A DNA stretch of 64,000 nucleotides from an uncultured Candidatus Binatia bacterium (lineage in GTDB: Bacteria; Desulfobacterota; Binatia; UBA9968; JAJDTQ01), in NCBI GenBank assembly GCA_965242525.1, contig OZ251459.1, forward strand, positions 3,872,001 through 3,936,000, read 5' to 3'. This document shows positions 4,701 through 25,622 of this stretch, piece by piece (position 1 is the stretch's first letter; the number at the start of each line of letters is the position of its first letter). Position numbers and translations under genes: made by a program. The notes under the pieces are model-generated. The model made no database searches and was not told the DNA's origin. It saw nothing but the letters and a program-made list of their open reading frames with translations.

Positions 4701-5267
4701 CTGCCGGCCAACCGGGTGCGGGAGCACGGCCAGAGCGGCGAGGTCAGCATGGTCGGAGTGGTGACCGCGCTGAAGCTCAAGAACACCAAGAAGGGGGACC
4801 GGTACGCGAACTTCAACCTGGAGGACAAGACCGGGTTCGTGGACACCATCGCGTGGCCGGACACCTACCGCCAGACGGCCGACTCCATCGGCGGCGACGA
4901 CCCCATACGGGTCAACGGCCGGCTCGACGTGGGAGAGGAACGGGTCACGTTGATCGCCAACGAGATCCTCCCCCTGGACCAGGCCTGCGCCCAAGTCATG
5001 GCCGCCCCTTCCGCGACTCCTTCCGCGGCCCCTCCCGCGGAGGTCCACTTCTACCTGAAGGAGGTCACCCGGCGCGAGTTGCAGGCGTTCCACGACCTCA
5101 TCGCGCAGGAGCAGGGGCAGTCCTCGGTCTTCCTGCACATGACCACCGGCGCCCGGGAAACGAAGGTCGTCGGACCCGCCAACTTCCGCATCAACCCGTC
5201 GAGGACGCTCCTGGACACGGTGCACCGGAGGTTCGGCGCCCGCATCACCGCCAGAAGGGGCCAGTAG
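1773..5267 (+). CDS. dnaE: DNA polymerase III alpha subunit
   Basis: PHP motifs [13 protein letters not shown] and TDHGN; GRGSAAGS; catalytic PDIDVDF; FNKSHSAAY; C-terminal OB fold. ATG at 1773 follows GAGGA. Confidence 0.98.
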
Positions 5268-5268
5268 C

Positions 5269-6561
5269 CTGGACCGGGGACCGGACCATTCGGCCGAGCG
5301 CACGGAGCGCGCGGTCCTGGTGGGGGTGGAGACGCCGTCGCCTGCGGGGGACGTGGCCCTGGAAGACAGCCTGGAGGAGCTCCGGGGACTCGCCGCCAGC
5401 GCGGGCGCCGAGGTCATCGGCGTGTTCGGCCAGCGTTCCGCCAGGGCCCATGCGGCCACGCTCGCCGGCCCCGGCAAGGTGGCCGCGGTCCGGGCGTTCG
5501 CGGAGGAGCACCGCCCGGACCTGGTCATCTTCGACAACGACCTCACGCCGGCGCAGCAGCGGAACCTGGAATCGGAGTGGAAGGTGCGGGTCATCGACCG
5601 CACCCAGCTCATCCTCGACATCTTCGCACAGCGGGCCCGGAGCCGGGAAGGCAAGCTCCAGGTGGAGCTGGCCCAGCTCCAGTACCTGCTCCCCCGGCTC
5701 ACCCGGCTCTGGTCCCACCTGTCCCGGCTCGGCGGCGGCATCGGCGCCCGCGGACCGGGCGAGACCCAACTGGAGGTGGACCGCAGGCGCATCCGCGAGC
5801 GCATCGGCCGGCTCAAGCGGCGGCTGGACGGCGTCGCCCGGACCCGGCGGCTCCAACGCAAGGAACGGGAGGCGTTCCCGTACCCCACCGTGGCCCTGGT
5901 GGGTTACACCAACTCGGGCAAATCCACACTCCTGAACCGCCTGACCCGGGCGGGCGCGCTGGTGGAGGACAAGCTCTTCGCCACCCTGGACCCGCGCACC
6001 CGCGCCCTCCGGCTGCCCAACGGGGACCGGGTGATGCTGGTGGACACCGTGGGCTTCATCAACAAGATCCCCCATGCCCTCATGGACGCTTTCAAGGCCA
6101 CCCTGGAAGAGATCGGCCAAGCCGACCTGCTGTTGTGCGTCATGGACCCCACGAGCCCGCTGGCGGAACGGCAGCACGCGGTGGTGGAATCGGTGCTCGA
6201 GGAGATCGGCGCCGCCGACATCCCCCGGTTGCTGGCGCCCAACAAGATCGACGCGGCCCCGCACCTGCCCGCCTACCCGACCGCGGGCCACGAGGGCCTG
6301 TGCCCCATCTCCGCCCGCACCGGCGCCGGCATCGACGGTCTCCTGGATGCCATCGGGAACGTGCTGGACCGCGGCAAACAGAGGATCCGCCTGACCCTGC
6401 GGCAGTCCGAGTCCGTGATCCTGCCGTTCCTGAGGGCCCGCGGGCGGGTGCTCGCCGAGGAATACGGCGAGCACCACGTGCAGGTCACCGCGCTGGTGAC
6501 GGCGAAGGTCTCGGGGCAGATCAAGAAGCTGGCCGCCCGCGGAGCCGCCGGCGAGGGGTGA
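5269..6561 (+). CDS. hflX: GTPase HflX
   Basis: [14 protein letters not shown]1 [27 protein letters not shown]. Conserved 'ERAVLVGV' lies upstream of GTG 5320, which suggests a CTG start at 5269. Confidence 0.95.
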
Positions 6562-6721: not shown

Positions 6722-7696
6722 ATGGAAACGCTGTTCAACAGTCCTGACAAGTTCGCCAGCCGTTTCGCCACCGTGGACGGCTACAGGACCCACTACGTCG
6801 AGGCGGGGGAAGGGAACCCGGATCGGTTGCTGCTGGTGCACGGCGGCGCCATCGAGGTGGGCATGGGCTGTTACCGCTGGTACGCCAACGTCATCCCGCT
6901 GGCGAAGAAGTTCCATGTTTTCGCCATCGACGAGCTCGGCCACGGCTACACCGACCCGCCCCGGAACCTCGACGACCTGAGCCACATCCGGGTGCGGGCA
7001 GACCACGTGCTGAGCTTCATCGAGACCTTGGGACTCGGTCCCGTCAACCTGGCCGGCCAGTCCCAGGGGGGCTGGATCGTCACCTACATCACCCTCGAGC
7101 GGCCGGACCTGGTGAAGAAGCTCATACTCATCGACAGCGGCAGCACCGCGGGGCGGCCCGCGGAAGTGGCCTCGGTGGGGTCCACGGAGGTGGATGGCGT
7201 CCCGGTGTCCGGAGACGCCACCGAGCTGCCCTACTACAGGGAGTTGTTCGAGCCCGGCACCATGCGGCCGAAGGAGGGCCTGACCACCACCCGGGAGGGC
7301 GTGCGCAAGTACGCCAGCGCGTTCTTCCACGACAAGTCCATGGTCACCGAAGAGTTCCTGGACCACCTGATGGAGCTGTCGGGCAAGTGGAGCCAGCTCT
7401 ACATGGACCACCGGGGCAAGGACTTCTGGTCCCACACCAGCCTCGCCGACCACCGCCGGCAACTGGAGGTCGATGGCAAGCACATCCGCGAGCACGTGCA
7501 CCGGATCGAAACGCCCACCCTGGTGGTGTGGGGCAAGAACTCCAACAAGGGGCTCGACATGGGCTTCCTGCTCTACAAGCTCTTCCCCAACGCCCAGATG
7601 CACATACTGGACAAGGCCAACCACTTCCTGTGGCTGGACCAATGGCGCGACTTCAACGCGCTGGTGGAGTGGTTCGTTTGCAAGGAGGAGGGTTAG
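6722..7696 (+). CDS. Alpha/beta hydrolase (MhpC/BphD-like C-C hydrolase or esterase)
   Basis: HGG oxyanion region, GQSQGG nucleophile elbow, C-terminal 'ANHFLWLDQ' catalytic His; SD GAGGAGG. Confidence 0.85.
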   Translation: METLFNSPDKFASRFATVDGYRTHYVEAGEGNPDRLLLVHGGAIEVGMGCYRWYANVIPLAKKFHVFAIDELGHGYTDPPRNLDDLSHIRVRADHVLSFIETLGLGPVNLAGQSQGGWIVTYITLERPDLVKKLILIDSGSTAGRPAEVASVGSTEVDGVPVSGDATELPYYRELFEPGTMRPKEGLTTTREGVRKYASAFFHDKSMVTEEFLDHLMELSGKWSQLYMDHRGKDFWSHTSLADHRRQLEVDGKHIREHVHRIETPTLVVWGKNSNKGLDMGFLLYKLFPNAQMHILDKANHFLWLDQWRDFNALVEWFVCKEEG

Positions 7697-7702
7697 GCGA
7701 TC

Positions 7703-7840
7703 ATGGAGACCCTCTTCAACAGCCCGGACGAATGGAGCAGCCGTTCCACCGAGGCCGACGGCTACCGCACCCACTACATCGAGGCCGGGGCGTCCAACCC
7801 GGAACGCCTGCTGTCGCGCTCAAGTCCTTGGCGTCCATGA
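7703..7840 (+). pseudogene. Truncated N-terminal stub of a paralogous alpha/beta hydrolase
   Basis: METLFNSPDEWSSRSTEADGYRTHYIEAGASNPERLL matches METLFNSPDKFASRFATVDGYRTHYVEAGEGNPDRLL of the upstream gene; similarity breaks at ~7813. Confidence 0.85.
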
Positions 7841-7963
7841 GCGTCTTCATCCTTGCAGCATGAACGGAAGTCCGCCTCTGTCCAGTGTCGTTCCCCGTTG
7901 GAATCACGTCCCCCCTTCAGTGGCATCCTGCATTGGACAATCCTGCTGCCCCGAGGCCCTCGC

Positions 7964-10327
7964 GTGGCGCTGACCGAAGCCGACACCTGCCGCAAGTTCG
8001 TCGTCCGGAGGTTGCAGGGGGCCGGATGGGACGACCCTCCCCACGCCATCGACGAGCAGCGGACGTTCACGGACGGACGGGTGGTCTTCGTCCGGGGCGA
8101 GGCCCGGCGCGGCAAGCAGAAGCGCGCCGACTACCTCCTGCGCTACCGCCCCGACTTCCCGATTGCAGTGGTCGAGGCCAAGGCCCGCTACAAGGGGGCG
8201 AGCGACGGGCTCCAGCAGGCCAAGGACTATGCCGAAACCCTGGGCCTGAAGTTCGCCTACGCCACCAACGGGACCGAGGTCGTCGAGTTCGACTATACGA
8301 CGGGCGTCGAACGCAGCGTCGCCGGGTTCCCCGGTCCCGAGGAACTGTGGCGCCGGCTGCGGGAGGCGGAAGCCATCACCGACGACCGCGTGGCCGACAC
8401 CCTGCTCACGCCGAGCCATCCCGACCGGACCCGGCCGCTCCGCTACTACCAGGAAACATCCGTCAACCGCGCGGTGCAAGCCCTCCTGCAAGGCCGCCGG
8501 CGCGTCCTCCTGACCCTGTGCACCGGCGCGGGCAAGACCGCGGTGGCCTTCCAGATCTGCTGGAAGCTATGGAAGGCCGGCTGGAACGCCCGGGGCGGGG
8601 GGCGCAAACCGAAGATCCTGTTCCTGGCCGACCGCAACGTGCTGGTGGACGACCCCATGGCCAGGGACTTCCTCCCGTTCGGCGACGCCCGGCACAAGAT
8701 CGGCGGCGGCGTGGCGGTCAAGAGCCGAGACATGTACTTCGCCATCTACCAGGCCATGGCCCGGGACGAGAACCGCCCGGGGCTGTACCGGGACTATCCG
8801 AGGGACTTCTTCGACCTCGTGGTGGTGGACGAATGCCACCGGGGCAGCGCCCGCGACGACAGCAATTGGCGGGAAATACTGGAATGGTTCGAGCCGGCAT
8901 ACCAGCTTGGCATGACGGCCACGCCGCTCCGTCAGGACAACGCCGACACCTACGCCTACTTCGGCGGCCCCCTCTACGAATACAGCCTCGCCCAGGGGAT
9001 CGACGACGGTTTCCTCGCCCCCTACCGCGTCCACCGGGTCATCACCGACTACGACGCCGCGGGCTGGCGTCCGGCGAAACACGAGCTCGACCGCTACGGA
9101 CGAGAGGTTCCGGACGCCCTGTACGGCACCAGGGACTTCGAGCGGGTGGTGGCCCTCCGCGCCCGCACCCGGGCCATCGCCCGGCATCTCACCGGCTTCC
9201 TCCGGCAGACCGACCGCTTCGCCAAGACCATCGTGTTCTGCGTGGACCAGGAGCACGCCTCGGAGATGCGCCAGGCGCTCGTCTCCCTCAACGCGGACCT
9301 GGTGAAGCAGCACCCGGACTACGTCTGCCGGGTGACCGCGGACGAGGGCGACGTGGGCAGCGCGCACCGCGCCAGGTTCCAGGACGTCGAGACCCGGACG
9401 CCGGCGGTCCTGACCACCTCGCACCTGCTCACCACCGGCGTGGACGCGCCCACCTGCAAGAACGTCGTCCTGGCCCGCGTCGTGGGATCCATGCCCGAGT
9501 TCAAGCAGATCATCGGGCGCGGCACACGGCTGCGCCCCGACTACGGCAAGCTGGCCTTCCACATCATCGACTACACCGGCAGCGCCACCGAGAAGTTCGC
9601 AGACCCGGCCTTCGACGGGGAGCCCGTGGGCGGACAGGAAGCGGTGGTCGATGCCGAGGGCGAGGTGGTCGAGGAGCACGAGGCGCCCGAGGCGGTGTAC
9701 CCGGCGGGCGACCTCGACGATACCCCGGAGATACACGAGCCGCCGGACGCCGAGCCGCGCAAGTTCTACGTGGACGGCGGCGCGGTCGAGGTCCTCCGGC
9801 ACCTGGTCTATGAGTTGGACCTCGATGGGAAACGGCTATCGACCCGCCGGTTGACCGATTACACGGGCGACAGGGTGCGCACGCTCTATCCCCGCGCCGT
9901 CGAACTGCGCAAGGACTGGCTCGATTCCGACCGTCGGGCGCAGGTGGTCGAAGACCTGGAGCAGAGGGGGATCGTGCTGGAAACCCTGGCCGAGGCCGTC
10001 GGCAAGCCGGAAGCCGACCCCTTCGACCTCCTGTGCCATCTCGCCTACAACGCGCCGCTGCGCACGCGCCGGGAGCGGGCCGACCGGCTGCGGCGGGACC
10101 AGGAGGATTTCTTCGACACTTTCGGTCCGCAGGCGCGGGAGGTGCTGGACGCCCTGCTCGAAAAGTACGCCGAGCACGGCAGCGCCCAGTTCAAGCTGCC
10201 CGAGGTCCTGGAAGTGCCGCCGTTCAGCGGCTGGGGCAACGTGGTCGAAATCGCCGACCGCTTCGGCGGCAGCCGGCAGCTTCGCAGCGCGGTCAGCGAC
10301 CTCCAACGCCTGCTCTACGCCGCATGA
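7964..10327 (+). CDS. hsdR: Type I restriction enzyme R subunit (EcoEI/EcoAI-like)
   Basis: Nuclease motif ADYLL...VVEAK; helicase motifs TGAGKT, VVDECHRG, GMTATP, QIIGRGTR; EcoEI-type C-terminus. GTG start at 7964 (ALTEADT). Confidence 0.95.
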   Translation: MALTEADTCRKFVVRRLQGAGWDDPPHAIDEQRTFTDGRVVFVRGEARRGKQKRADYLLRYRPDFPIAVVEAKARYKGASDGLQQAKDYAETLGLKFAYATNGTEVVEFDYTTGVERSVAGFPGPEELWRRLREAEAITDDRVADTLLTPSHPDRTRPLRYYQETSVNRAVQALLQGRRRVLLTLCTGAGKTAVAFQICWKLWKAGWNARGGGRKPKILFLADRNVLVDDPMARDFLPFGDARHKIGGGVAVKSRDMYFAIYQAMARDENRPGLYRDYPRDFFDLVVVDECHRGSARDDSNWREILEWFEPAYQLGMTATPLRQDNADTYAYFGGPLYEYSLAQGIDDGFLAPYRVHRVITDYDAAGWRPAKHELDRYGREVPDALYGTRDFERVVALRARTRAIARHLTGFLRQTDRFAKTIVFCVDQEHASEMRQALVSLNADLVKQHPDYVCRVTADEGDVGSAHRARFQDVETRTPAVLTTSHLLTTGVDAPTCKNVVLARVVGSMPEFKQIIGRGTRLRPDYGKLAFHIIDYTGSATEKFADPAFDGEPVGGQEAVVDAEGEVVEEHEAPEAVYPAGDLDDTPEIHEPPDAEPRKFYVDGGAVEVLRHLVYELDLDGKRLSTRRLTDYTGDRVRTLYPRAVELRKDWLDSDRRAQVVEDLEQRGIVLETLAEAVGKPEADPFDLLCHLAYNAPLRTRRERADRLRRDQEDFFDTFGPQAREVLDALLEKYAEHGSAQFKLPEVLEVPPFSGWGNVVEIADRFGGSRQLRSAVSDLQRLLYAA

Positions 10328-10368
10328 CCCGTTCGTCCCGAGCGTAGCGGAGCGGAGTCGAAGGACGC
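10328..10368 (+). repeat. REP-like core between hsdR and hsdM
   Basis: cccgttcgtcccgagcgtagcggagcggagtcgaaggacgc. Confidence 0.85.
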
Positions 10369-10419
10369 GCCCAGTCAGAGGACGTCCACCGCGGGCTTCC
10401 GCACCCGGGGGGTTCCGCA

Positions 10420-12015
10420 ATGGGCGTTGCCGGAAAGGAAACGAACGGCTTGAGCAAGGACAAGCGCAGGAAAGCCGCGCCCGGACCCATGACCACCGTT
10501 CAGCGGCTCGACGGCATCATCAAGTCCGCGCGCAAGGTCATGCGCAAGGACAAGGGGCTGAACGGCGACCTGGACCGGCTGCCCATGCTCACCTGGGTCC
10601 TGTTCCTCAAGTTCCTGGACGACATGGAACGGATCGAGCAGGGGCGGGCGGAGTTGGCGGGGCGGGAATACCGTCCGATCATCGAGAAGCCCTACCGTTG
10701 GCGGGACTGGGCGGCTCCGGCCGGCGGCGTCAGCGGGCCGGACCTGCTGGCCTTCCTGGCCGCGGAGCGCACGGCCCGGGCCGACGGCAGCGCCGGTCCC
10801 GGGCTGTTCGCCTATCTCCAGGGGCTGCGCGACGACGACGGCCGGCGCGAGCGGCGCGACGTCATCGCCACCGTGTTCCAGCGGTTGACCAACCGCATGG
10901 AGAGCGGCTATCTGCTGCGCGACGTCATCAACCTGGTGGACGGCATCCACTTCGACTCGTCCGACGAGATCCACACCCTGGGCCGCCTGTACGAGAGCAT
11001 GCTCCGGGAGATGCGGGACGCGGCCGGCGATTCCGGCGAGTTCTACACTCCCCGCCCGGTGGTCCGTTTCATGGTGGAGGTCACCGACCCGCAGCTTGGC
11101 GAGACGGTCCTCGACCCGGCCTGCGGCACCGGCGGTTTCCTCACCGAGGCGTTCCGGCATCTGGAGCGCCGCGCCCATACGGTGGAGCAGCGTGCGGTCC
11201 TGCAAGACCGCAGCATCCAGGGCGGCGAGTCCAAGTCGCTGCCCTTCCTGCTGGCCCAGATGAACCTGCTGCTCCACGGGTTGCACGCCCCGCGCATCGA
11301 CCCGGGCAACTCGCTCCGTTTTCGCCTGGCGGAGATCGGCGAGGAACAGCGGGTGAACGTCGTCCTGACCAACCCGCCCTTCGGCGGCGAGGAGGAGGCC
11401 GGCGTCCTCAACAACTTCCCGGAGGACCGGCGCACCACCGAGACCGCGCTGCTGTTCCTGCAGCTCATCATGCGGCGCCTGAAGCGCGGCGGCCGCGGAC
11501 GCGCCGCGGTGGTGGTGCCCAACGGCACGCTGTTCGGCGACGGCCTGTCGGCGCGCATCAAGGCCGACCTGCTGGAGCGCTTCAACCTGCACACCATCGT
11601 CCGTCTGCCCGAAGGCGTGTTCGCGCCCTACACCGACATCCCCACCAACCTGGTCTTCTTCGACACCAACGGCGCCACCGAGACCATCTGGTACTACGAG
11701 CAACCCCGGCCGGAGGGCCGCCGGAAATACTCCAAGACCGCGCCCCTGCTGTACGAAGAATTGGCCGACTGCCTGGCATGGTGGAAGGACCGGAAGGAGC
11801 ACGAACGCGCCTGGAAAGTGGACGCCAAGGGGCTGGTTCGGCGCGACGAGCAGGGCCGGGCGGCGGCCTGCAACCTCGACCTCAAGAACCCCCATTCGGG
11901 CGAGACCGTGGACCACCGCGCCCCTGCCGAAATCGTGGACGGCATCATTGAAAAGGAGCGCCGCATCCTCGCCATCATGGACAAGATCAAGGCGACGCTG
12001 GGGGAGGGGGAGTGA
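10420..12015 (+). CDS. hsdM: Type I R-M methyltransferase subunit (start may be ATG 10489)
   Basis: GEFYTPR, DPACGTGGFL (motif I), NPPF (motif IV). Confidence 0.95.
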   Translation: MGVAGKETNGLSKDKRRKAAPGPMTTVQRLDGIIKSARKVMRKDKGLNGDLDRLPMLTWVLFLKFLDDMERIEQGRAELAGREYRPIIEKPYRWRDWAAPAGGVSGPDLLAFLAAERTARADGSAGPGLFAYLQGLRDDDGRRERRDVIATVFQRLTNRMESGYLLRDVINLVDGIHFDSSDEIHTLGRLYESMLREMRDAAGDSGEFYTPRPVVRFMVEVTDPQLGETVLDPACGTGGFLTEAFRHLERRAHTVEQRAVLQDRSIQGGESKSLPFLLAQMNLLLHGLHAPRIDPGNSLRFRLAEIGEEQRVNVVLTNPPFGGEEEAGVLNNFPEDRRTTETALLFLQLIMRRLKRGGRGRAAVVVPNGTLFGDGLSARIKADLLERFNLHTIVRLPEGVFAPYTDIPTNLVFFDTNGATETIWYYEQPRPEGRRKYSKTAPLLYEELADCLAWWKDRKEHERAWKVDAKGLVRRDEQGRAAACNLDLKNPHSGETVDHRAPAEIVDGIIEKERRILAIMDKIKATLGEGE

Positions 12016-13160
12016 TGGGGTGGCCGGTCGTCAAACTCGAAGAAGTTCTCGATCAAGATCTGGATTTAGTAAACGATCTTGAGCCGAAAATCTACAAGAA
12101 ACTTTCGGTGAAGCTCTACGGCAAAGGAGTGATGCCGGACAAGCCTGTTGATGCTCGTGTCGTTCGCATGAAAAAGCACCAAATTGCCAGGGAAGGACAG
12201 GTAATCGTCTCTGAAATCTGGGCCAAGAAAGGGGCAATCGGAATCGTCCCCGCCGATGGAAGCGGCGCTTTGTGTACAAGCCACTTCTTTCTCTTCAACC
12301 GAAACCCTGATCGAGTTACAGAGGGTTGGCTTCGGTATCTTTTCGTTGCAAACTTCCTTGAACCACAATTGAGTGCTGAGGCCAGAGGAACGACAGGCTA
12401 CGCATCTGTCAGGCCGCGCCACTTCCTTCAGTGTGAAGTTCCCCTCCCGCACCTTGGCGAGCAGCGACGGATCGTCGCCAAGCTGGACAAGGTAGCGGGG
12501 TTGGTGGAGGAACGAAGAAGGGTCATCGAGACAGCCGAGCGCGACGCCCATGCCATGCTGTCCAACGCCTTCCGGGAGGTTATCGACGGCGCGCCGTACC
12601 GTCCAATGGCCGAGGTCGCGCCGCTGGTCCGTCGACCGGTTGTGGTGGAGCCGGACCAACAGTATACCGAGATAGGCGTAAAGAGTTTCTACAATGGTAT
12701 TTTTCACCGGCGCACGATGAACGGGTCTGAATACAGTTGGCAGAAACTCTTCTGGATCAGGGAGGGTGATCTTGTCTTCAGCAACCTGATGGCTTGGGAG
12801 CAAGGGATTGCCGCGGCCTCGGCTGAAGACAACGGTTGTGTCGGAAATCACCGAATGCTGACGTGTGAAGTGAATCGCACCTTGGCAACTCCGCCTTTTC
12901 TGCTTGCCTACTTCAGAACGGAAGAAGGATTCATGCAGGTAGCGGAGCATTCCCCTGGAAGCATCGCCCGCAACAAGACCTTATCATCAAAAAAGTTGCC
13001 AACGATCGAAGTTCCCGTGCCGCCCCTCGACCGGCAACGGTGGTTCGGCCGCTTGCAGGCACAGGTTCACCAGATGGGGGCGATACGGGAAGGCGCCGGC
13101 CAGGACATGGACGCGTTGCTGCCGGCAATGCTACAAGGTGCGTTTCGGAGACGTGGATGA
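12012..13160 (+). CDS. hsdS: Type I R-M specificity subunit
   Basis: Two TRDs separated by conserved 'VPLPHLGEQRRIVAKLD'; second conserved block 'VPVPPLDRQ'; overlaps the hsdM stop. Confidence 0.92.
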   Translation: MMGWPVVKLEEVLDQDLDLVNDLEPKIYKKLSVKLYGKGVMPDKPVDARVVRMKKHQIAREGQVIVSEIWAKKGAIGIVPADGSGALCTSHFFLFNRNPDRVTEGWLRYLFVANFLEPQLSAEARGTTGYASVRPRHFLQCEVPLPHLGEQRRIVAKLDKVAGLVEERRRVIETAERDAHAMLSNAFREVIDGAPYRPMAEVAPLVRRPVVVEPDQQYTEIGVKSFYNGIFHRRTMNGSEYSWQKLFWIREGDLVFSNLMAWEQGIAAASAEDNGCVGNHRMLTCEVNRTLATPPFLLAYFRTEEGFMQVAEHSPGSIARNKTLSSKKLPTIEVPVPPLDRQRWFGRLQAQVHQMGAIREGAGQDMDALLPAMLQGAFRRRG

Positions 13161-14908
13161 GGGTTGACGCCAAGCGTCTGTGGGAGGCGGTGCGCCTCGG
13201 CGAGGACAGCGACCTCGAACTGAAGGAAGCGCGCTTCCGCGGCCGGCGCGTGTCCGCTCCCGCCCACGACGACCTTGCCGACGAATTCGCCGCGTTCGCC
13301 AACGCCCGGGGCGGCCGCCTCCTGCTCGGCGTGAGGGATGATCGAACGCCGCAGTCCCTCGACCCTGCGCAGCTCGATGCGCTGATGGACCTGGTCAAGG
13401 AGGTTTGCGAGGACAGCATCGAGCCGCGGCTGGACTTCGACGCCGTTCGCGTCCCCGTTCCCTCTCCCGGCGATGGCGGCGCCCTTGTTGTCGAGGTTCC
13501 GGCGGGGGACTCCGTCCACCGCTCACCCGGCGGCTACTACCGCCGCCGCGGCGACGCCAAGCGGCAAATGCAGCCGGACGACATTCGCCGCCTGCTGCAA
13601 GCCAGAGGCCAGTCCGCCGCCTCCACGGATACGCAGACGGTCCCCGACACCAGCTTCAACACCTTGCGCCCGGAACTGTGGCGGCGCTACGCGAGTTCGC
13701 GCGCCAGCGAGCCTGCCGAAATCACCCTCTCCAAGTTGAAGTTCGTCAAGACGGACCGGCAGGGAGCGCTCCGCGTTACGGTCGGCGGCGTATTGCTCGG
13801 CTGCGAGGAGCCTCGCGAGTGGCTGCCGAACGCCTACATCCAAGCCGTCTGCTACGACAGCGTTCGCATGGACGGCAACTGGCAACTCGACGCCCAGGAC
13901 ATCGGCGGGCCGCTCGACAGACAGATACGGGACGCCGTGCGTTTCGTGATGCGCAACCGCCGGGTGGCCGCGCACAAGGCGCCGGGACGCAGTGAAGTGC
14001 CGCAATACAGCGAACGGGCGGTGTTCGAGGCGGTGGTGAACGCGGTGGTGCATCGGGACTATGCGGTTGCCGGCTCCCACATTCGCCTGTTCATGTTCGA
14101 AGACCGCCTGGAGCTCTATTCCCCCGGCGGCCTGTGCAACTCCATGACCACGGACGACCTCCGCATCAGCCAATTCACCCGCAACGAACTGCTGGCGTCT
14201 CGGCTTGGCCAATGCCCCGTGGGCGACATTCCCGGCGCCGGCGGCAGGGATTACTTCATCGAGCGGCGCGGCGAGGGCGTCGCCGTAATCGAGGACGAGA
14301 CCTTCGCGCTCACCGGCAGGAAGCCCGTCTTCGAGATGATCGGGGAACGGGAGCTGAAGCTGACGCTGCCGGTGGCCAGCCCGCCGTTGCCGGACGGCAT
14401 CGCCGTGCGCGTGCGGGTGCGCGATGACCGCAGCGGTGAACCGCTGCGGGACGCCCATGTGCTGATGCTCTATCCCGACAAGACCTGTCGCGAGGGGCGC
14501 ACCGACGCCTTCGGCCGTGCGGATTTCACGGTGCACTCCCGGCTGCCGATGACCGTGCTGTGCGCCGCGCCGGGGTTCGCCGCGCGTGTGGCGAGGGACT
14601 GCATTCCGAACGGACCGCTGGAACTGCGCATGGCGCCGCTGCCGGGCGGGGGGTCGCTGATAATCGCCAGTGGAACGGGACGCCTGCCGGGCATCGAAGG
14701 GCGGCTCAACCCCATCCTCGACAACCACGACAGAACCTACCTGTACGCCGGCAACGTCGCCATCAACGACGGCCTGCAGCAGCCGGTCCATTTCGCCTTG
14801 AACGAGCCTGTCCGCTTGACGGACTCGCTGGGCGCCCATGCAACCCTGTGGTTCCGGGAGGTGCTGGGGGAATCCTGCGTGTTCGACTACCGTTTCGAGA
14901 CCGACTGA
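13157..14908 (+). CDS. Schlafen/AlbA_2 + HATPase_c_4 (RecG-C-like) protein with an extra C-terminal beta-rich domain
   Basis: 'GEDSDLELKE' and 'AFANARGGRLLLGVRD' (AlbA_2); 'EAVVNAVVHRDY', 'SPGGL', 'RNELLA', 'ERRGEG' (HATPase_c_4). ATGA overlap with hsdS. Confidence 0.8.
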   Translation: MRVDAKRLWEAVRLGEDSDLELKEARFRGRRVSAPAHDDLADEFAAFANARGGRLLLGVRDDRTPQSLDPAQLDALMDLVKEVCEDSIEPRLDFDAVRVPVPSPGDGGALVVEVPAGDSVHRSPGGYYRRRGDAKRQMQPDDIRRLLQARGQSAASTDTQTVPDTSFNTLRPELWRRYASSRASEPAEITLSKLKFVKTDRQGALRVTVGGVLLGCEEPREWLPNAYIQAVCYDSVRMDGNWQLDAQDIGGPLDRQIRDAVRFVMRNRRVAAHKAPGRSEVPQYSERAVFEAVVNAVVHRDYAVAGSHIRLFMFEDRLELYSPGGLCNSMTTDDLRISQFTRNELLASRLGQCPVGDIPGAGGRDYFIERRGEGVAVIEDETFALTGRKPVFEMIGERELKLTLPVASPPLPDGIAVRVRVRDDRSGEPLRDAHVLMLYPDKTCREGRTDAFGRADFTVHSRLPMTVLCAAPGFAARVARDCIPNGPLELRMAPLPGGGSLIIASGTGRLPGIEGRLNPILDNHDRTYLYAGNVAINDGLQQPVHFALNEPVRLTDSLGAHATLWFREVLGESCVFDYRFETD

Positions 14909-14991
14909 TTTCCCGTTCTTCAGGATTTCGCGTGGACGGTGTCCCACGGAGGGAATCGGACCTCATGGCGTGGGAGGGGAGTGTGGCACAC

Positions 14992-15486
14992 CTACACGAA
15001 ATCGGTATAGACGATGCGGCCGTTCTGCCTTGCCCAGGCTTCGGAGAATCCCACGTGGGAGATCACGTTGCTGCTTTGATCGAGCTGGCGTTCGGTCTCT
15101 TTGAGCACGACGGCCGGATCCATTTCATAGATGCACTTGCACCTTGTCTGTTCGTTCCTGTAGAAGACTGCCAGATATACCATCCTGTTCCGGATGATTC
15201 GCTCGAGGGACTTGGCGCGTTTGTCGCCAGGTTCCCTGAACATGCGGTCCAGTTGTCCCGTTCCGCCTTCTTGACAGGACAGATATTCGTATTGTTCATC
15301 GGGACGATTCGGAGCATGGGCATCCGCGTGGCGTTTTGAATGGACCAGTTCATGTCCCAATATGTCTGCAATGATCATCTCCTTCACCAGTCCTGGCTGA
15401 AGCAGGTTGGTAATGCCAACGGACCTCGCCAGTTTCGTGGCTTCGAGGATCAGTTCGATGATTTTGCGATAGATGGGTCGGGTCAC
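14992..15486 (-). CDS. Putative type II restriction endonuclease, PvuII-like
   Basis: 164 aa, overlaps the MTase end. Collinear similarity to PvuII recalled from memory: LARSVGITNLLQ, ADAH...QYEYLS, IYEMDP, WARQNGRIVY. Confidence 0.6.
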   Translation of the reverse strand: MTRPIYRKIIELILEATKLARSVGITNLLQPGLVKEMIIADILGHELVHSKRHADAHAPNRPDEQYEYLSCQEGGTGQLDRMFREPGDKRAKSLERIIRNRMVYLAVFYRNEQTRCKCIYEMDPAVVLKETERQLDQSSNVISHVGFSEAWARQNGRIVYTDFV

Positions 15487-16280
15487 TGGAAAAGCATCCT
15501 TGCCAGATGTTCATCGATCTTCCGAAGCCTCTCGTTTGCCGCCTTGACAAATTCCTTGTCCCGTTCGATTCCGATGAAATGGCGGTTGAGTCGCTTGCAG
15601 ACAACCGGACACGTGCCGACACCGGCAAATGGATCCAGTACCAAATCATCCTCCGCGGAGCTGGCCTTGACCAGGCGCTCCATGATCTGTTCGGGCTTCT
15701 GGATGGTATTGAGCGCGTCGCGGTTGAGCAGCTCTTTCGATTTGTAGGTCAATTGCTTGATGTCTCCCCACACGTCGCCGGGGTTCTTTCCGTCTCCGTT
15801 GAACTTCGTCTTCCGGTACCGTCCGTTTCTGACGGAAGGCACCCGTTCACAACGCAAGCGGTGGTCCAGTTCGACGAGTTGCGGAACGCGGACGGCGTCA
15901 AGGTCGAAGGTCCTCGGTTTGTCGCCCTTGATGAAGTAGCAGATGACATCATGGTTGTTGGTGTACTTGAGGCGCCCCTGGGCGAGTCGGCTCGGTTGGT
16001 ACCAGATGATCCGTGACCTGAGGTTCAGAAAAGGGCGATAGTCGATGAAGTCGATGCAGTTCGGTTTCCCGAAAAGGTACAAAGCGCCCCCTTCTTTCAG
16101 TTTCCTGGAAAATATGCGGATCAGATCCAGGTTGTATTCCTGGATGTTCTGGATTCTGTCCCATTGATTGCCCGTGACGCCGTACGGGCCGTCGCAGATG
16201 ACCAGGTCGATACTTCCGTCGTCGATCCGGGGAAACAAGTCGAAGGCGTCTGCCTGGTAGATGCGATCCAGCTCGATCAT
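15483..16280 (-). CDS. Beta-class N6/N4 DNA methyltransferase
   Basis: Motif IV 'DLVICDGPY' near the N-terminus; 'IQKPEQIMERLV'; motif I 'VLDPFAGVGT' near the C-terminus. Confidence 0.9.
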   Translation of the reverse strand: MIELDRIYQADAFDLFPRIDDGSIDLVICDGPYGVTGNQWDRIQNIQEYNLDLIRIFSRKLKEGGALYLFGKPNCIDFIDYRPFLNLRSRIIWYQPSRLAQGRLKYTNNHDVICYFIKGDKPRTFDLDAVRVPQLVELDHRLRCERVPSVRNGRYRKTKFNGDGKNPGDVWGDIKQLTYKSKELLNRDALNTIQKPEQIMERLVKASSAEDDLVLDPFAGVGTCPVVCKRLNRHFIGIERDKEFVKAANERLRKIDEHLARMLFQ

Positions 16281-16378
16281 TCGCCAGTTCCTTCCGATTT
16301 ACTTAGAGGTTCAGGTCACGTAATCTGTTTGGAGTCAAGTCAGCTCACGTCCAAGTCAAAACAGGGACAGATACTGTC

Positions 16379-19300
16379 TCACACATCCGGAATGACGAGA
16401 GGGAGAGAGCAGTTCGTCGACACCGGCTCCACTTCGCTCCCATTGTTGCGGCCACAACGAGTCAATTTGAAGTGACGAGTGGTCGCACCGAAGGTGTTTG
16501 CAATGTCGGCGATTGCACGAGACGTGGCGACGACCGCATGCCCTTCGGCTTCCGTGTTGTCAAATACAGGGCCAGCGCGTCCGTACCATCCGTCCACCCA
16601 CCAGATAGTTTCGACCGCAAGCTCCCCAGCCACAGTTCGCCAACAACCCGGTCGGGTAGGATCGGCAATCCATGCCAGCTTTGCTGCAAATTCAGGATTG
16701 AATGAAAGCCAGTCAGCGCGGACCTGATGAAACCGGTCGCCAGAGTTCTCGATGATCAAGGGATCTCCATTTTTCGGCAGTCTTCCGACAGGTGCGGTTG
16801 CGAGGTCCTTCAAGGTCATTGAGTGGCAAGAGGCGAGGATTCGGTCTTCAAGAGACAATTTCGTTCCGATGGTCGTTCCACACTGGAATGTTTCTTCCAG
16901 GTAACCCCAGTTCAAAACTCTCAGACGACTTCTTGCACCGATAAGCACCCGATCCTTGTATATGGACATGGTGAGATATTGCTCAAGCCGATCCTTGATC
17001 TCTTCGCGCCATCGGGCAATGGTCTGGTCATGACCTGCCGGCGGCGCAGGTGGGAGGACCTCCGGGCGGCTCTCCGCAGTGCGGCTCAAGGCATCGATGT
17101 CCAAAGTACGAAGTCGGCGGCACATTTCTGGTGACGCGTCTTCGAGCAAACCCGCGTCTCGTATATCAGCCAGGACTCGGCCGAACGCAGCGCGCGACGC
17201 GGCAATCCTCATAGTTGAGTATCTGAATTGAATCTGGGAGGAGGAATTGAGAGTACTCCGAACGACTTCCGGATCCGGGAGTGTAGCTAGTGCGGTGGAG
17301 GCATAGTGTGCCGCGATCGCTAATAATGTATGGAAGTTCAACCCCAGGTCGTCTGCAAGTATTGCATATTGCTCCAGGTGAGGGATGAGCAATACAGGGA
17401 TGGAACCAATAGGCGTGTCTGCCGGCTGAGGCAAATTCAATTGATACAACGGAGAAAGAGGTCGGTGGACGGATGACGATGAGGGGTCAACAAGATCACG
17501 GATAATTTGGCTAGGGTGGTTCGACAGTATGCATACTAGAGATTGAAGGGAGGCGGGAATGACGTATCCGTCTTGAGATTTGGCTCCAGCAAGGCAGCGT
17601 CCAGTTCGCTCCAAAATCTCGTCGCTTGAGTTAGGTTGGGCAAATCGGGCAAGTGCCTCGGCAACGAATCTGAATTTATTTCCAAGTGCGCGAATAACGA
17701 TGGCGGTAGCGGCGTCACGAACGAGAAAGGCAGGATGCGAAAGGTGTCCTACTGCAAGTTCCGCAAGTGCAGTCTGGGGATTTGATTCAGCGGCGGCCAC
17801 GCGTCGATCTCCATTGGGCGTGGGCATCCACCAGTAACATCCATGGTCTTGGAGAACATCCGGGCCGGGTAGTATTAGGCTTTCCGCGATCCCTTCGATA
17901 TAGCTGCGGACCTCCCGCCATATCGTCGGGGCGTCGAGGTCGGGATCGAGTATCGCGACAAGGTTATCCAGTTCGTTCAGCAACATGGGCGCCAGCCAAC
18001 GGCTTTCGTTAAGGTCATGAACGAGATACTTACACACATTCGCGCGCGCATCTGCATCGCCTAGCCGAATCGCAACGGCGGCTGCGTGTTGGCGGGTTCC
18101 GCCATCATATAGACGTGACCAGGACATACTTTCTGCCTCTTGTAGGATTCTGTTGGCAAACGACAACGCGGTTTTCGGGTATCCGTTTCGCTCGGCGGCC
18201 TTGCCAAGAGAAAGAAAAACTCGCATATTTTCTCTCGATCCGTCGTCAAATAGTTCGGTCAGCTTTTGCAGGTCTTCCTGTGTGAAGGTCAGTTGATCGA
18301 TGATCGGTGCCCAATGGAACAGTGAATCGTCAGTCTCTCTATGGCGAAAGGAGATGATGTCGTCGGCATTCCTTATATGCGAGGCAACATCGTCGCGTGC
18401 TATCCTCTGACCATCGGACAGTACCAGTGCATCGTAATGATGGTTATTTGATTTTTTCAGATTTTTGTGCTTGTATTTCCCGTCCTCGGTCCCGAGGCCG
18501 AGACCTTGCCGCCATTCGTTTCGCGTAGTCGATAGCGCATACTTGTCGGTACGAGTGGTGACCGACTTCGCCAGGATCGTGTGTGTTCCCTTCTTACCAC
18601 CACTTTTGGCCGCCACGATCAGAGACTCGGCGAGCTTTGGATGCGCACGGTTCGCCGCAGGAGCAAGCAACTCGGCAGTGATGTCCGCCGCTAGCTCGAC
18701 AGTGGCGATCTCTTCGGCACCACTATGTGTCAGGAGCCCGTCAATCAAGGCAGCGAGACACTCAAGATGATCGACCGTATGGTGCCGAACGAGAAATTCG
18801 AAAATGCGGACAGCCGCCACCGGATCTGCAGGGACTACTGCCGAGGGAAGATGGACTGCTGCCGATCCAGGAGCCCCTTCGGTCGTTGGGTTCGTCGCTA
18901 CGAGAACGCGGGCGAGCCAAGCGGCATCCTCGACACATCCTTCGCCTTCCGGTTGTGCGAGAGCCTTTGCCAGCCAGGAAACCCAAGTACCGCACTGATA
19001 ATCCTTGTGATATCCGACCCCAAACGCCATTCTTATCAATGAAAGTACGATACGGTATGCGCTTTCCTTCTCACCATTCTTGGAATAACGAACTACGAGG
19101 CTGGCCATATTTGCCACTCGCTCATCCATCGATTCTGAGAATATGGTTTCTTCGACTTCACAGAGTGTCTTCCGATAGAAAGAAACGTTTGCGCCTGCTG
19201 ATTGGAGATAATCGGCCAGTTCAAGTCGTAATGCCATTGGCCACTCGTCCGGATGGTCCTCGAACAGGCGCATGAGAGTATCACTTAAGCGCTGAGGGAG

Positions 19301-22300
19301 GGGATTATGGTAGTTTCTGCTATACCTGTGAGCTACATTGATGGCTATACTAAATAGTTGAGATCTTTTCTGTGTAATCAAACTATGATTAGCGCTACTT
19401 TGGCGTTCCGTTCGCAAAAAGATGGAGAAGACCAAAGTAATTTCTCTCCAGACTTCGTTCGCTGGTACCTGTCGATTCGAGATCGTCTCTGCGTCCAGGC
19501 GCCCCAAGGTTCTGACCGCCGAATCGATGCAGGCAGCGAGTTCGATGGCGTCGACGTCACCATGTACGGAAGCGTCCCGAGATATTCCGCTTCCAGCCGG
19601 AGCATCAGGAGGAACGGACTCCGGAATCTCTTCATCATATGAGGCGAGAAGGTGCCGAAGCCGCCAGTACCGAAAATGGCGACAGATAATATTGAAATCG
19701 TGACTGAAAGCTAACGTTTCCACTGTTAGGGCATTGCTATATGGCGTATGATCAAGCAGGGAAATTGCTTGATCGACATTTCCGTAATAGAAAAGAAGAA
19801 GCTCGGCAGCGTCGATTCTGAGAGTGGAACGTCGGACAGTGTAAATAGCAGGCGATCCAAAGAAGATTTAGCAGCGTCTGTTGTTGAAGCCTGTTCAAGT
19901 AACCTCTGCTGTGCACGGACGCGGAGATGTATTAGCGTCGCGATCTTGGAATTCCCGTCACCGTCTCTATATTCCTCGTCCTCGCAAGCCTCACGCCGAA
20001 GCCGGTAGTCCTTGAGCTGATTTACATGTTCAGCAAGAGCCGAATCGATCATGGTGAGCGCCTTTTCATCACTCTTGGTCGTCATCGCGTCGATAAGCGC
20101 TTTATTCATCCTTCGATAGCGAAGCCATCGCTCGGCTTCTGCGTGCTTGTCGTTTGGCGTATTTTTCGGCTCTTTCTCGACTTGACTCCGGATTGCAGCG
20201 ATGATGTATTCTGGCGGACGAAAAAGCACGGCGGCTCGTGTCCAGGCTAAAGCGGCGTCATCTTCCTGACCGGCCACTGATGTTCGCTTATGGTCATCGA
20301 GGCCATCCTGCTCTATCTGATCAAAGAGTCGTCGTCCTGCGGAATCATCTGCGTCTCCCAGTTTTGCGGCCAGTTCATAGGCATACGCAAGTGGTACTTG
20401 CCGCGTCTCAGATCCACACCAGGAAATGGCCTCCTTGACCAGCCCAGCTTCGTACAGAAGGGCGGGCATATTGACATTCTCAAGAGATGAAGTTCGAGAT
20501 GTCAACTCGACAGAGGCGAGGAGTAATCGAAGTATCCCTAAAACGTCGGTGCGGTTCGCGGCGACGTCCAGTGCGAAAGCGATATCTTGTCGAATGAGAG
20601 CGGGTGAACGTAGGCGTCGATATTGTTCACGAAAAACGCTTTGTTGCGCCAAGCTCATGACTTTGTCGTACTGGTTTCCGCAGTATCGGTGATAAAGTTG
20701 TTCTCCGGCAATGTTGTGGTCGGTTGCATTGGCGCAAAGGTCAGCGATACGTCGGTGAGTTCGGACTTCCATGCGGGGATCAGGGCACTGTTCGTCGCCC
20801 CAGGCAGTGCGGTCGGCGGTGAATTGTCGAAAGGAGTCATGGAAAAATCGCCATCTGTCCTGGTAGCGATTAAACAGATACAGGAATTTATCCCGGAAGG
20901 TTCTCACGGCAGCAGACGGTGCCCAGTCGGAAAGCCACCCCGTTGTGAATCCGTTTCGCAATCGAGAACAGACGGCAAGAATGTCCACGATATCGTTGTC
21001 GTCTCTCACTTCATCCCAAATCGCCCGATACTCGGCCTCGATGTCGCCTGAGTATGCGGGTAGTGCGGCAAGTATTTCCGCGTCATGTCTTTCGCCGCCA
21101 TTGCGGAGACGGTTCAGGAGATAACTTAGTGCCAGCGGATACCCGCGACTGAGTTCGACGATGCGCTGGTGAGTCTCCGCTGCTAGATTCTTCGTGATCG
21201 GCAGGCGGCGGCAGATCTTGAGGATGGCTGTCGGAGGCAGGCAGTGATGCTGAAGGTTGACAATGGTCTCTCGTTCGTGGAGTTGTTGTTGTGCATACGC
21301 GTGAAGAGGCTCCAGAGTCCGACTGCCGACTATAAACAGGACGCCGTCAGGCGTTTCGTCGGGACGAGGCAATTCTGAGAGCAGGTCGTCGTTGCCGGAA
21401 TAGTCGCGCCGGACATGGTCGAGACCATCGACGACAATGATCGTCCGACGACCCGTACGCTGGAACTCGGCACTCGCCGTGTCAAGCTTGTTGGTGAACT
21501 GTTGTCGGAGCGTCTCGATTTCGGTGCTGGGAAGTTCAGGTTCGTTACCGGAATTATCGCCGCCGCTCAGCATGAGCATCATGTCGTGCAGGAAGCCTCG
21601 AGCGCTCAGGCGTGTTTTGGCCGGCGCAGTGCCGGAAATGTAGGCATAATAACGGACGATTCGATCAGTGCTTCCTGAGAGTGATTGGCTCAGCAGTGTC
21701 GATTTTCCGGAGCCTGGTGGGCCGATCACAGCAAAATAGCCGCGGTCATGGCGAGTGATCGATTGGGATAGCTGATCGATTGCGTCGGCAAGCGGCTCAT
21801 AGGTGTCCAGGTCGACGGGAAATTCATGGCGGCTACGCAGACGCGGCCGATTTTCCCAATGCATCAGGTCAAGAACATCGTCGGCATTCATTTCGACGAC
21901 ATCGGATGCTTCCGAGACGCAACGTTTGAGGGTGTCTGAAAGTGCGATGATGTCCGATCGTCGTGTTGATTGTGACGTCGGCAGACCCGACTCGACAGCA
22001 ACATCAATGTGCAGTGACTGGAGGAATCGCTCAAACTTATCGCCCGCGAGCCCGCTGGCGTCTTGAAGCTTCTCAAGAGCTGGCCGCCATTCAGTGGGGA
22101 CGTCTTCGAGAGTTATATTCTTCAAGCGGAGTGGTTTGAGCACTCGGGTGAGGAAGGCGCTGAAGTGATCCGGAGATGGCTGGTTTGCACGACTCCCTAG
22201 TTGATCGTTGACCGAGGCAACCTGATTGGTGACGAGATGGACGTAGCTATCCTTCCTTTCTCTCTGTATAGAAATCCAGCCATCAGAAAGCGCCCGGACC

Positions 22301-22584
22301 AAAGACGCTCCGGATTTTCCGCTACGTGTGCGTTGATTCCGGACGACGTCATTGAAAGTGAGAGCATTGGGGGACTCGACCCTCTTGAACTGATAACCGT
22401 CAACGCGCCCGCGTCGGATGAGCAGCAGATCGTCAACACGCCCGGCGTCAGGGTCCGTCAGCCGCAGAGATTCCAGGTCGTGATTGAGCAGCGCGTCATA
22501 GACAAGTGCTGCGATGTGATCGTATTGCCACTGATATCCGCGAAGAGCGGAGCGTTCACCGGACGCCGGTGGTCTGTTCATCAC
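16379..22584 (-). pseudogene. Nuclease-STAND NTPase-helical repeat protein (Avs/AVAST-like, ~2,070 aa), split by a frameshift near 19,810
   Basis: ORF 19726-22584 has a PD-(D/E)xK-type N-terminus (ALRGYQWQY...VDDLLL...YQFK), Walker A GPPGSGKST, Walker B IVVDGLD and FFHDSFRQF. The frame of ORF 16379-19723 stays open upstream (DAAELLLFYYGNVDQAISLL...) to ~19,868. Lower GC than the host. Confidence 0.8.
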
Positions 22585-22786
22585 CGACCTCCTATTCGCA
22601 TGAAATAGACGGACCCAGTTCGAGGTCCTGACTCCATATCCAGCATCCTGCCTTCAGATAGGTCGAAACGAGATTGAAAGCGTGTCGATCTATACGGACA
22701 ATCCTACCAGAAGGGGCCTGAGAAATCTAGTGATGGCGCGATTTTGAGAGGTGTCGCGCTGGCCGGCAGAGTCACGTATGCCATGT

Positions 22787-24085: not shown

Positions 24086-24166
24086 GCGGTAGATAGGGGG
24101 GTTTTCGGTTGCTGCTCTCCATGATAGACTACGGCAATAACTCGCCATATTTAGCAGGTTGCCGCA

Positions 24167-25599: not shown

Positions 25600-25622
25600 C
25601 GGCAGGCCGGTCTGCTGGTGCG

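Follow-up and report, generated by a model that had tools for sequence, protein, structure and literature searches.

A Schlafen-GHKL ATPase gene with a portable two-domain beta tail in a mobile type I restriction-modification cassette of a Binatia bacterium

Proteins that combine a Schlafen (SLFN) domain with a GHKL-type ATPase have been named "Schlatpases," and the accessible text of the preprint that uses this name counts 60,692 of them, more than 90% of which carry a helix-turn-helix (HTH) according to a figure legend, with TPR and immunoglobulin (Ig)-like tails next in frequency (bioRxiv 10.64898/2026.05.29.728809). In RzAgo (SLFN-GHKL-Argonaute), ATP binding is reported to drive tetramerization and the Schlafen domain to cleave tRNA, and Schlatpase modules of Poribacteria are placed, HsdS-fused or standing alone, in type I restriction-modification (R-M) operons (bioRxiv 10.64898/2026.05.29.728809). 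Similarly, the available part of another study presents bacterial Schlafens as anti-phage defense proteins and distinguishes 55 architectures, among which His_Kinase_A.pSlfn accounts for 34% and the Ig-like type (pSlfn5) for 3.9% (PMC13056530, Nature Microbiology). One of these, RorSlfn5, is a phage-activated tRNase whose Ig-like domain senses the T5 tail assembly chaperone, and its trigger specificity travels with that domain in chimeras (PMC13056530). A further system, PrrC/EcoprrI, is described as an anticodon nuclease whose gene lies inside a type IC R-M locus (PMC12707154). Here we analyze a gene that touches on all of these, which lies in a 64-kb stretch of contig OZ251459.1 from an uncultured Candidatus Binatia bacterium (the whole 64,000-nucleotide stretch is called "the window" below). 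Its product is a Schlatpase with a C-terminal tail of two beta domains, and the gene, predicted to be translationally coupled to hsdS, moves together with hsdRMS as a 7-kb cassette in the lineage of the window. No description in print was found of the second tail domain or of the portability of the whole tail, while the core and the general idea were already in print in 2026, the year in which bacterial Schlafens were first shown to be phage-activated tRNases.

The Schlafen-GHKL core and its C-terminal tail

The gene under study overlaps the end of hsdS in an ATGA (Table 1), and the same ATGA is present where the Schlafen gene begins at L003, one of two related Binatia loci (L003 and L001) used for comparison. 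Because homologs align from residue 1 in both the homolog search and the family alignment, the ATG at 13157, and not the GTG upstream at 13040, is taken as the start. The ATGA coupling, the type I R-M operon upstream, the intact Schlafen motif and the HATPase_c_4 domain had all been noted in a first-pass annotation of this DNA, and each was borne out by direct reading or by Pfam.

Table 1. Features of the cassette and of its downstream neighborhood (window positions; residues are those of the product encoded by the feature).
Feature	Position	Strand	Basis or remark
Cassette hsdR-hsdM-hsdS-Schlafen/ATPase gene, 6.96 kb	7952..14914	+	blastn, block common to two related genomes
hsdR, type I restriction subunit	7964..10327	+	Pfam ResIII 1.1e-31, EcoEI_R_C 4.1e-28, HSDR_N
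hsdM, type I methyltransferase subunit	10420..12015	+	Pfam N6_Mtase 5.4e-57, HsdM_N
hsdS, specificity subunit	12012..13160	+	Pfam Methylase_S 2.9e-7, residues 44-166
ATGA start/stop overlap, hsdS/Schlafen gene	13157..13160	+	ATG at 13157, hsdS TGA at 13158-13160; sequence read
Schlafen-GHKL ATPase (Schlatpase) gene with beta tail (P0001)	13157..14908	+	583 aa; open reading frame (ORF), Pfam, homolog search
SLFN_AlbA_2 nuclease domain, residues 16-138	13202..13570	+	Pfam E 5.5e-14
HATPase_c_4 (PF13749, GHKL-type ATPase), residues 306-402	14072..14362	+	Pfam E 1.2e-15
Tail domain 1, transthyretin-like/CarboxypepD_reg-like beta-sandwich, residues about 412-497	14390..14647	+	AlphaFold2, VIA, Foldseek
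Tail domain 2, conserved beta domain, residues about 498-583	14648..14905	+	AlphaFold2; no Pfam, PDB or PADLOC match
Small ORF	14992-15486	-	beside N6_N4 methyltransferase
N6_N4 (type II) methyltransferase	15483-16280	-	Pfam
1114-aa protein	16379-19723	-	no Pfam, NCBIfam or PADLOC family
STAND NTPase, 952 aa	19726-22584	-	Avs1b-like, residues 270-699, PADLOC 4.8e-29
ISL3 transposase	23046-23939		within 10.7-kb extra stretch
AbiEii protein	24109-25599		within 10.7-kb extra stretch
AAA_14-DUF4143 (PADLOC PDC-S01 family)	25623-26792	-	then hisG

The N-terminal part of the protein exceeds the Pfam threshold for SLFN_AlbA_2 (PF04326; 53.2 bits against a cut-off of 25.3), and its residues 16-23, EDSDLELK (13202-13225), form the motif E16-x4-E21-x-K23, in agreement with the catalytic motif E-x4-(E/D)-x-K as defined in the consulted part of PMC13056530. 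HATPase_c_4, C-terminal of the Schlafen domain, scores 57.7 bits against a cut-off of 26. Residues 201-402 match positions 225-432 of the PADLOC pAgo model, and residues about 190-400 are also matched by two Argonaute-associated PADLOC models. The protein thus has the two core domains of Schlatpases and RzAgo in the same order, with the Ex4ExK and GHKL motifs conserved. Since the name "Schlatpase" exists and the preprint text already mentions Ig-like C-terminal tails and a location in type I R-M operons (bioRxiv 10.64898/2026.05.29.728809), the first-pass claim of an undescribed system went too far. By contrast with RzAgo, the one Schlatpase for which the preprint shows ATP-dependent oligomerization and tRNA cleavage, the window protein has neither an Argonaute core nor an HTH, and by contrast with other Schlatpases its C-terminus is a two-domain module that also occurs on non-Schlafen effectors.

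This architecture is widespread. In a search with the whole protein, 4020 of 8000 scored candidates passed E<=1e-3; the 120 best clusters show 71-92% identity, cover 99-100% of the query and are 573-595 residues long. The observation is far beyond chance, and with the full architecture in at least 120 clusters the protein is no one-off fusion. In an alignment of 128 members (the 120 close clusters, six more distant proteins, the query and a paralog from its own genome), E16, E21 and K23 are retained in 125, 123 and 120 members, respectively, and 63 of the 583 columns are at least 99% conserved. They include the GHKL columns E291, N295, A296, H299, R300, Y302, S322-P323-G324 and R371-G372-G374, which we take to be parts of the ATP-binding boxes. 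Among the 120 close clusters, mean identity to the query is highest in the GHKL domain (85.0%), followed by the second tail domain (76.5%), the middle region (76.2%) and the Schlafen domain (69.0%), and the transthyretin-like first tail domain is the most variable part (62.5%).

Relatives that lack the tail occur in metagenome-assembled genomes of Latescibacterota (45-48% identity); their match is confined to residues 6-404, and the one that was read, at L009, stops directly after the GHKL domain, which indicates that the tail is a module added to a complete core. In the stretch L009:7225-13282 this closest tail-less Schlatpase is flanked by two large proteins, one of 922 residues upstream, which begins with a PHP-like motif, and one of 668 residues, of no assigned family, downstream. 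A whole-protein metagenome scan returned five loci, none with the tail, and a survey of the phylum found the tail in 1 of 401 genomes searched, namely that of the window, so that its distribution is patchy. Among viral contigs, none of 24 candidate stretches was confirmed as a relative.

The tail begins with the stretch "VRVRVRDDRSGEPL," from which a transthyretin-like beta-sandwich in place of the usual winged HTH, followed by a second beta-rich domain, had been predicted in the first pass. Structure prediction agrees with this: the AlphaFold2 model contains no HTH-like element after residue 402, the 179 C-terminal residues (405-583) being all-beta, and these residues, modeled from a 32-row alignment, form two beta domains with a predicted local distance difference test score (pLDDT) of 95.9 and a predicted template modeling score (pTM) of 0.88. 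Domain 1 superimposes on the transthyretin-like domain of carboxypeptidase D (5aq0_B) with a VIA Z of 12.7 and a root-mean-square deviation of 1.5 A over 78 residues; further VIA matches at Z 8-12 are many prealbumin-like, pilin and macroglobulin domains, and Foldseek gives a TMt of 0.74-0.75 to 5aq0 and 9hfj. It shares its fold with the carboxypeptidase regulatory-like family, yet it differs in that CarboxypepD_reg (PF13620) scores only 21.8 bits at 417-480, below the Pfam cut-off of 32.3, and in that domain 1 is always followed by domain 2, as one unit, in the tail-bearing sequences compared. A search of BFVD structures with the tail returned only generic sandwich matches, to domain 1, and ESM Atlas structure searches gave no score over 0.87 or 0.78.

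Domain 2 has no described counterpart in the resources searched. Folded alone by AlphaFold2 as residues 493-583, it reaches a pLDDT of 95.3, and it is marked by a G-R-L-N-P-I-L-D...R-T-Y-L-Y-A...Q-P-V motif (consensus GTGYIPGLxGRLNPILDxxxRTYLYAxNIAINxGxxQPVxF), in which a G, D522, R526 and P543 are invariant in 32 sequences; across unrelated architectures its identity is 35-50%. Ten proteins scanned against Pfam at E<=10 gave no match in domain 2, the few weak rows falling outside it; a PDB profile search gave six weak rows, the best of which (E 0.058) lay over flanking profile positions; and Foldseek found nothing in the PDB at E<=1e-3. The best VIA score, Z 7.1 (4gbs_B), is inside the range that the tool itself describes as common or noise, and an HmuY-like fold, for which the best VIA Z values are 5-7.1, was rejected on the same ground. 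An FHA domain (PF00498) was rejected as well: FHA chains reach only VIA Z 4-6, and hhalign against 24 FHA domains of the same phylum gave a probability of 0.8%. FHA domains are present in 22 of 41 sampled genomes of the phylum, and the genome of the window has none at E<=1e-5. In the literature consulted we found no description of domain 2 or of the two-domain tail across effector classes, which subscription papers or the figures and supplements of the Schlatpase preprint may list, and "CarboxypepD_reg" and "transthyretin-like" were not met in this context.

The predicted fold also bears on the idea that the protein is a DNA-binding regulator or some other non-defense protein, for example one controlling expression of the R-M operon. 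Close homologs carry source names such as "predicted HTH transcriptional regulator" and "putative DNA binding domain-containing protein," and the HTH is the rule among Schlatpases as counted in the preprint legend (bioRxiv 10.64898/2026.05.29.728809). However, the window protein has an all-beta region where an HTH would be, its nuclease motif is conserved, its gene is located in a defense island, and relatives are proven nucleases in the portions of the two studies available (bioRxiv 10.64898/2026.05.29.728809; PMC13056530); a regulatory or other non-defense role is therefore very improbable.

The tail is found on many other proteins. A search of the full library with its 179 residues matched 511 representative clusters at E<=1e-3, of which 353 also pass E<=1e-10 and 51 pass E<=1e-30. 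In these the tail is mostly C-terminal, in proteins of 170-760 residues, some of which contain two or three copies. Partner domains were assigned with Pfam in 81 of the top 150 tail matches, the short proteins being chiefly left out. SLFN_AlbA_2 and/or HATPase_c_4 was the partner in 18 of the 81 (one of them also with DUF4062) and a TIR-type domain (TIR_2, TIR, SEFIR or CAP12-PCTIR_TIR) in 17; AAA_14/DUF4143 accounts for four, Pkinase for three, Caspase, Trypsin_2 and PIN_8 for two each, and HipA, Dockerin and Fic-like_C as the only partner for one each. Weak partner matches only (M48, HEPN, Nuc_deoxyrib_tr) were obtained in three, and sandwich-type matches alone in the remaining 27. In three proteins Fic-like_C is positioned after the tail, where it is presumably a winged helix. 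As judged from these predicted domains, the same module is joined to at least ten other effector types in other bacteria.

When 25 tail-bearing proteins were compared with PADLOC models, matches were obtained to ThsB, bSEFIR, PycTIR and CBASS TIR effectors, caspase, the PD-T4-6 kinase, PDC-S01 and RT-protease, in each case over the N-terminal part only, so that the tail occupies the place of those systems' own sensor parts; eight of the 25, both stand-alone tails among them, had no match. The proteins are named "hypothetical" or "TIR domain-containing" in their sources. A cultured example is a 734-residue TIR-tail protein encoded on a plasmid of Sinorhizobium chiapasense (tail match at 36.8% identity, E 4e-19), whose gene sits among five annotated TIR genes, a UvrD-like helicase and AbiEii/AbiEi. 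Several stand-alone tails have signal- or membrane-like N-terminal segments, and one tail follows a dockerin. At L065 (8320-12652; genome G405), a stand-alone tail gene of 171 codons is arranged head-to-head with the gene of a TonB-dependent outer-membrane receptor, which carries its own N-terminal CarboxypepD_reg domain.

Linkage to type I restriction-modification genes

The four genes of the cassette have moved as one unit in three Binatia genomes. Window positions 7952-14914 correspond to L003 4556-11758 in the same order and at 89-92% identity, except for the divergent specificity region of hsdS; the cassette at L003 occupies the same chromosomal place and shares its right flank, AAA_14-DUF4143 and hisG, with the window. 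At L001 an equivalent of 6.98 kb lies elsewhere in the genome and is circularly permuted, the Schlafen gene (9986-11743) preceding hsdRMS (11794-16965). A short stretch upstream of this Schlafen gene matches the end of the L003 hsdS (blastn, junctions read), and this match makes the hsdS-Schlafen junction look ancestral. HsdR and HsdM of the window are 92-94% identical to those of L003 and L001, whereas HsdS is 50-63% identical. The mechanical ORF of hsdR begins at 7853 in the window; a GTG near 7964 and homology with L001 and L003 suggest that the real start is there.

Linkage was then compared over 11 loci at which the Schlafen-ATPase-tail gene is complete or nearly so, leaving out L005 (cut by a contig end), L063 and L064 (broken copies) and L065 (the stand-alone tail). 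Five of the 11, belonging to two lineages, are flanked by hsd genes: the window, L003 with the same gene order, L001 with the Schlafen gene upstream, the paralog of the window genome (48% identical to the window protein), which has an hsdS behind it but no hsdM in its vicinity, and L062 in a gammaproteobacterial genome, where a near-identical copy of this paralog lies between hsdM and hsdS. At the other six (L002, L004, which is frameshifted, L006, L007, L008 and L013), no hsd gene was found within about 6.5 kb by Pfam on the neighbors and by genome-wide Methylase_S and N6_Mtase positions, yet the orthologs there retain the whole tail at 62-80% identity. In a maximum-likelihood tree the linked copies fall in two places: the Binatia trio is nested in a subfamily with six further members, all of them unlinked, and the second-subfamily pair has 100/100 support. 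The association with hsd genes is thus real and recurrent, but neither constant nor specific to the tail. The survey proposed in the first pass upheld the recurrence of the architecture and did not uphold a general co-occurrence with hsd genes, and the idea of an "R-M guard" as a trait of the family has to be given up.

These data have to be weighed against the precedent of PrrC, on which the guard idea was modeled. A PrrC-like guard would be held inactive by contact with HsdRMS and set free to cut tRNA once a phage anti-restriction protein, such as one of the Ocr, ArdA or Stp kind, puts the complex out of action. Both proteins have a putative tRNA-targeting nuclease and an NTPase domain and are encoded inside a type I R-M operon, as PrrC is described in the available text (PMC12707154), and the window gene is embedded by its ATGA overlap in such an operon, with hsdR, hsdM and hsdS upstream. 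Joint inheritance and movement of the four genes, once with circular permutation, also speak for a guard, as do the second subfamily beside hsd genes in two phyla and the fact that 4 of the 13 SLFN_AlbA_2 genes of the window genome are within 7 kb of hsdS or hsdM. Published neighborhoods point the same way, in that, on the single page of the neighborhood table consulted, 18 out of some 122 Schlafen rows include type I R-M genes, the string "RM__Type_I_MTases" appears 643 times in the neighborhood file (PMC13056530), and the Schlatpases of type I operons cited above include HsdS fusions (bioRxiv 10.64898/2026.05.29.728809). All five other genomes tested that have a tail-bearing gene carry type I genes elsewhere, and action in trans would be possible there.

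On the other hand, linkage is not conserved across the family, the paralog in the same genome stands beside an hsdS without hsdM, and the one Sinorhizobium neighborhood has no R-M gene annotated near its TIR-tail gene. R-M genes abound in the window genome (N6_Mtase, 25 matches, and Methylase_S, 10 matches, in 4.2 Mb), and proximity would be frequent anyway, because defense genes cluster in islands: in the part of the data set available, 69.6% of pSlfn genes have a defense gene no more than 10 kb away (PMC13056530). Moreover, the same tail on TIR, caspase, kinase and PIN effectors makes it unlikely that the tail is dedicated to sensing the R-M complex or anti-restriction proteins. PrrC itself is an ABC-type ATPase with a HEPN-like nuclease, and it has no fold in common with the window protein. 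We therefore regard a PrrC-like guard as an unlikely explanation of the locus.

Two of the loci show further gene arrangements of their own. At L062 (G401:C1:686000-704000) the type I operon is interrupted by inserted genes, in the order hsdM, a 308-residue protein of no assigned family, the Schlafen-tail gene, a YhgA-like transposase or small ORFs, two NTase_sub_bind (HEPN-like) genes and an hsdS-Polbeta nucleotidyltransferase fusion, beyond which follow HATPase_c_3, a C5 methyltransferase and Vsr. The paralog of the window genome belongs to a second defense island (L022:9193-17276 and L023:236-1954; C1 about 2.183-2.193 Mb), which comprises AAA_15/AAA_21-DUF3696, the Schlafen-tail paralog, the orphan hsdS, an SDH-type ClpP-like protease, AAA_21 with DUF4276, and AAA-ATPase_like-PDDEXK_9.

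Proposed role of the tail

The reading that we favor, with a probability of roughly 55%, is that the gene encodes an abortive-infection-type Schlafen-GHKL effector, which uses its tail as a portable input and moves together with an R-M system. By analogy with relatives, the Schlafen domains would be assembled into an active RNase under ATP gating, and the active RNase would cut tRNA, so that translation stops in the infected cell. The tail would be the input part, and the enzyme would be held off until the tail binds a cue, the likeliest being a phage protein or assembly, as in the case of the Ig-like domain of pSlfn5. The transthyretin-like domain, the more variable of the two, may determine specificity, and domain 2, which is conserved, may relay the signal. 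A layered defense could then arise from one operon, restriction acting first and abortive infection second, with no obligatory physical guard. Accordingly worded, the first-pass proposal of an ATP-gated tRNase with a beta-rich sensor keeps a precedent in RzAgo and RorSlfn5, while its part concerning dedicated sensing of R-M or anti-restriction proteins does not hold up well; the tail is probably a reusable infection-sensing or regulatory module and not a dedicated guard of the R-M system.

The sensor role is suggested by the position of the tail, by its partners and by the likeness to pSlfn5. Both are single-gene systems in which a Schlafen nuclease with an Ex4(E/D)xK motif is combined with a beta-sandwich at the C-terminus, the position of the sensor, and tail domain 1 belongs to the broad Ig/prealbumin-like sandwich class. 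They differ in that pSlfn5 has no GHKL ATPase between nuclease and sandwich, its rows in Supplementary file 21 reading "pSlfn.Immunoglobulin-related" (PMC13056530). In the window protein, about 270 residues including the GHKL domain separate the two parts, and the string "His_Kinase_A.Immunoglobulin-related" is absent from the architecture table of PMC13056530 as consulted.

Several observations weigh against this reading. The analogy with pSlfn5 is one of fold class and position, and hhalign of the tail profile with the Ig-like part of one pSlfn5 member (Bacillus thuringiensis plasmid, L066) gave a probability of 0.5%. Two plain Schlafen-HisKinase (pSlfn1) proteins gave no protection against an E. 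coli phage panel in source-data file 1 of PMC13056530. The strong conservation of domain 2 is unlike that of a fast-evolving sensor of phage proteins and would be better explained by a conserved ligand, a partner or a structural role, and the stand-alone tails with signal- or membrane-like segments, together with the dockerin protein, show that the module is not confined to cytoplasmic immune proteins.

Because of this conservation and of the secreted-looking stand-alone forms, a scaffold or ligand-binding role is conceivable. The tail would then be a constitutive module for assembly, scaffolding or localization, which by binding, for example, a conserved cellular structure, a glycan or a small ligand gathers whatever enzyme it carries at one site or in one oligomer, and the nuclease would be regulated otherwise, for example by nucleotide levels. 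It would fit such a role that the invariant G, D, R and P of domain 2 are kept across architectures, that within the family this domain is more conserved than the nuclease domain, that some proteins have two or three tandem copies, that folds of the transthyretin-like and CarboxypepD_reg kinds are frequent among secreted and envelope proteins, and that one stand-alone tail adjoins the gene of a TonB-dependent receptor with a domain of this kind. However, the great majority of the N-terminal partners are effectors of immunity or conflict, a class that usually comes with a sensor, and inspection of the 11 loci revealed no conserved partner gene; the odds are clearly against a scaffold, about as much as against the guard. 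Since PycTIR and CBASS-type TIR proteins carry the tail, a receptor for a second messenger was also considered, and it was set aside, as the 11 loci showed no cyclase gene.

It is tempting to speculate further that the transthyretin-like and "GRLNPILD" domains together form an undescribed portable immune input module, by which one kind of cue would be passed to at least ten effector chemistries (Schlafen RNase, TIR NADase, caspase, trypsin-like protease, Ser/Thr and HipA kinases, PIN, AAA_14-DUF4143 and DUF4062 among those meant), and that the hsd-coupled copies serve as the abortive back-up of a mobile type I cassette. We hold this wider proposal only tentatively. Should the tail prove to be a sensor, identifying its ligand would account in one step for how numerous otherwise unannotated single-gene systems are triggered. 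As regards the trigger of Schlafen-ATPases, the locus provides a defined variant in which the putative input domain is amenable to study as a unit, with a confidently predicted fold that is conserved and outside Pfam and PADLOC, and the 7-kb cassette is a clean test case for cooperation between restriction and Schlafen-mediated abortive infection.

The surrounding defense island

The cassette is part of a defense island in which G+C content falls to 0.52-0.62 at about 12 to 24 kb, compared with about 0.68 elsewhere in the window. Immediately after the Schlafen gene, 10.7 kb (14915-25608) are present in the window and absent from the otherwise collinear L003 (blastn), where only 1.6 kb separates the Schlafen gene from the AAA_14-DUF4143 gene; this stretch looks like a recent insertion into the island. 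An AAA_14-DUF4143 gene is near the Schlafen-tail gene in the window, at L003 and independently at L013 (5293-6453), and there are other bacteria in which proteins of this AAA_14-DUF4143 architecture (P0194, P0232) carry the tail themselves; the proximity may be a coincidence. The window genome (G000) as a whole is very rich in defense genes, with the N6_Mtase, Methylase_S and SLFN_AlbA_2 counts given above.

A scan for promoters and terminators over 7300-16500 found nothing above the shuffled expectation. DNA runs labeled "sponge metagenome" contain a third to half of the words sampled from the 64-kb window. Upstream of the cassette, positions 1973-5935 of the plus strand and frames overlapping them hold very long ORFs (one of 1320 residues and others in several frames) with no Pfam, NCBIfam or PADLOC match, some of which may be spurious given the G+C content of about 68%. 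Within the 10.7-kb stretch, the STAND NTPase has a weak N-terminal match of the PD-(D/E)xK/SAVED_PDDEXK type, and its gene is separated by only 2 nt from that of the 1114-residue protein on the same minus strand; these two genes may constitute an undescribed two-gene Avs-like system.

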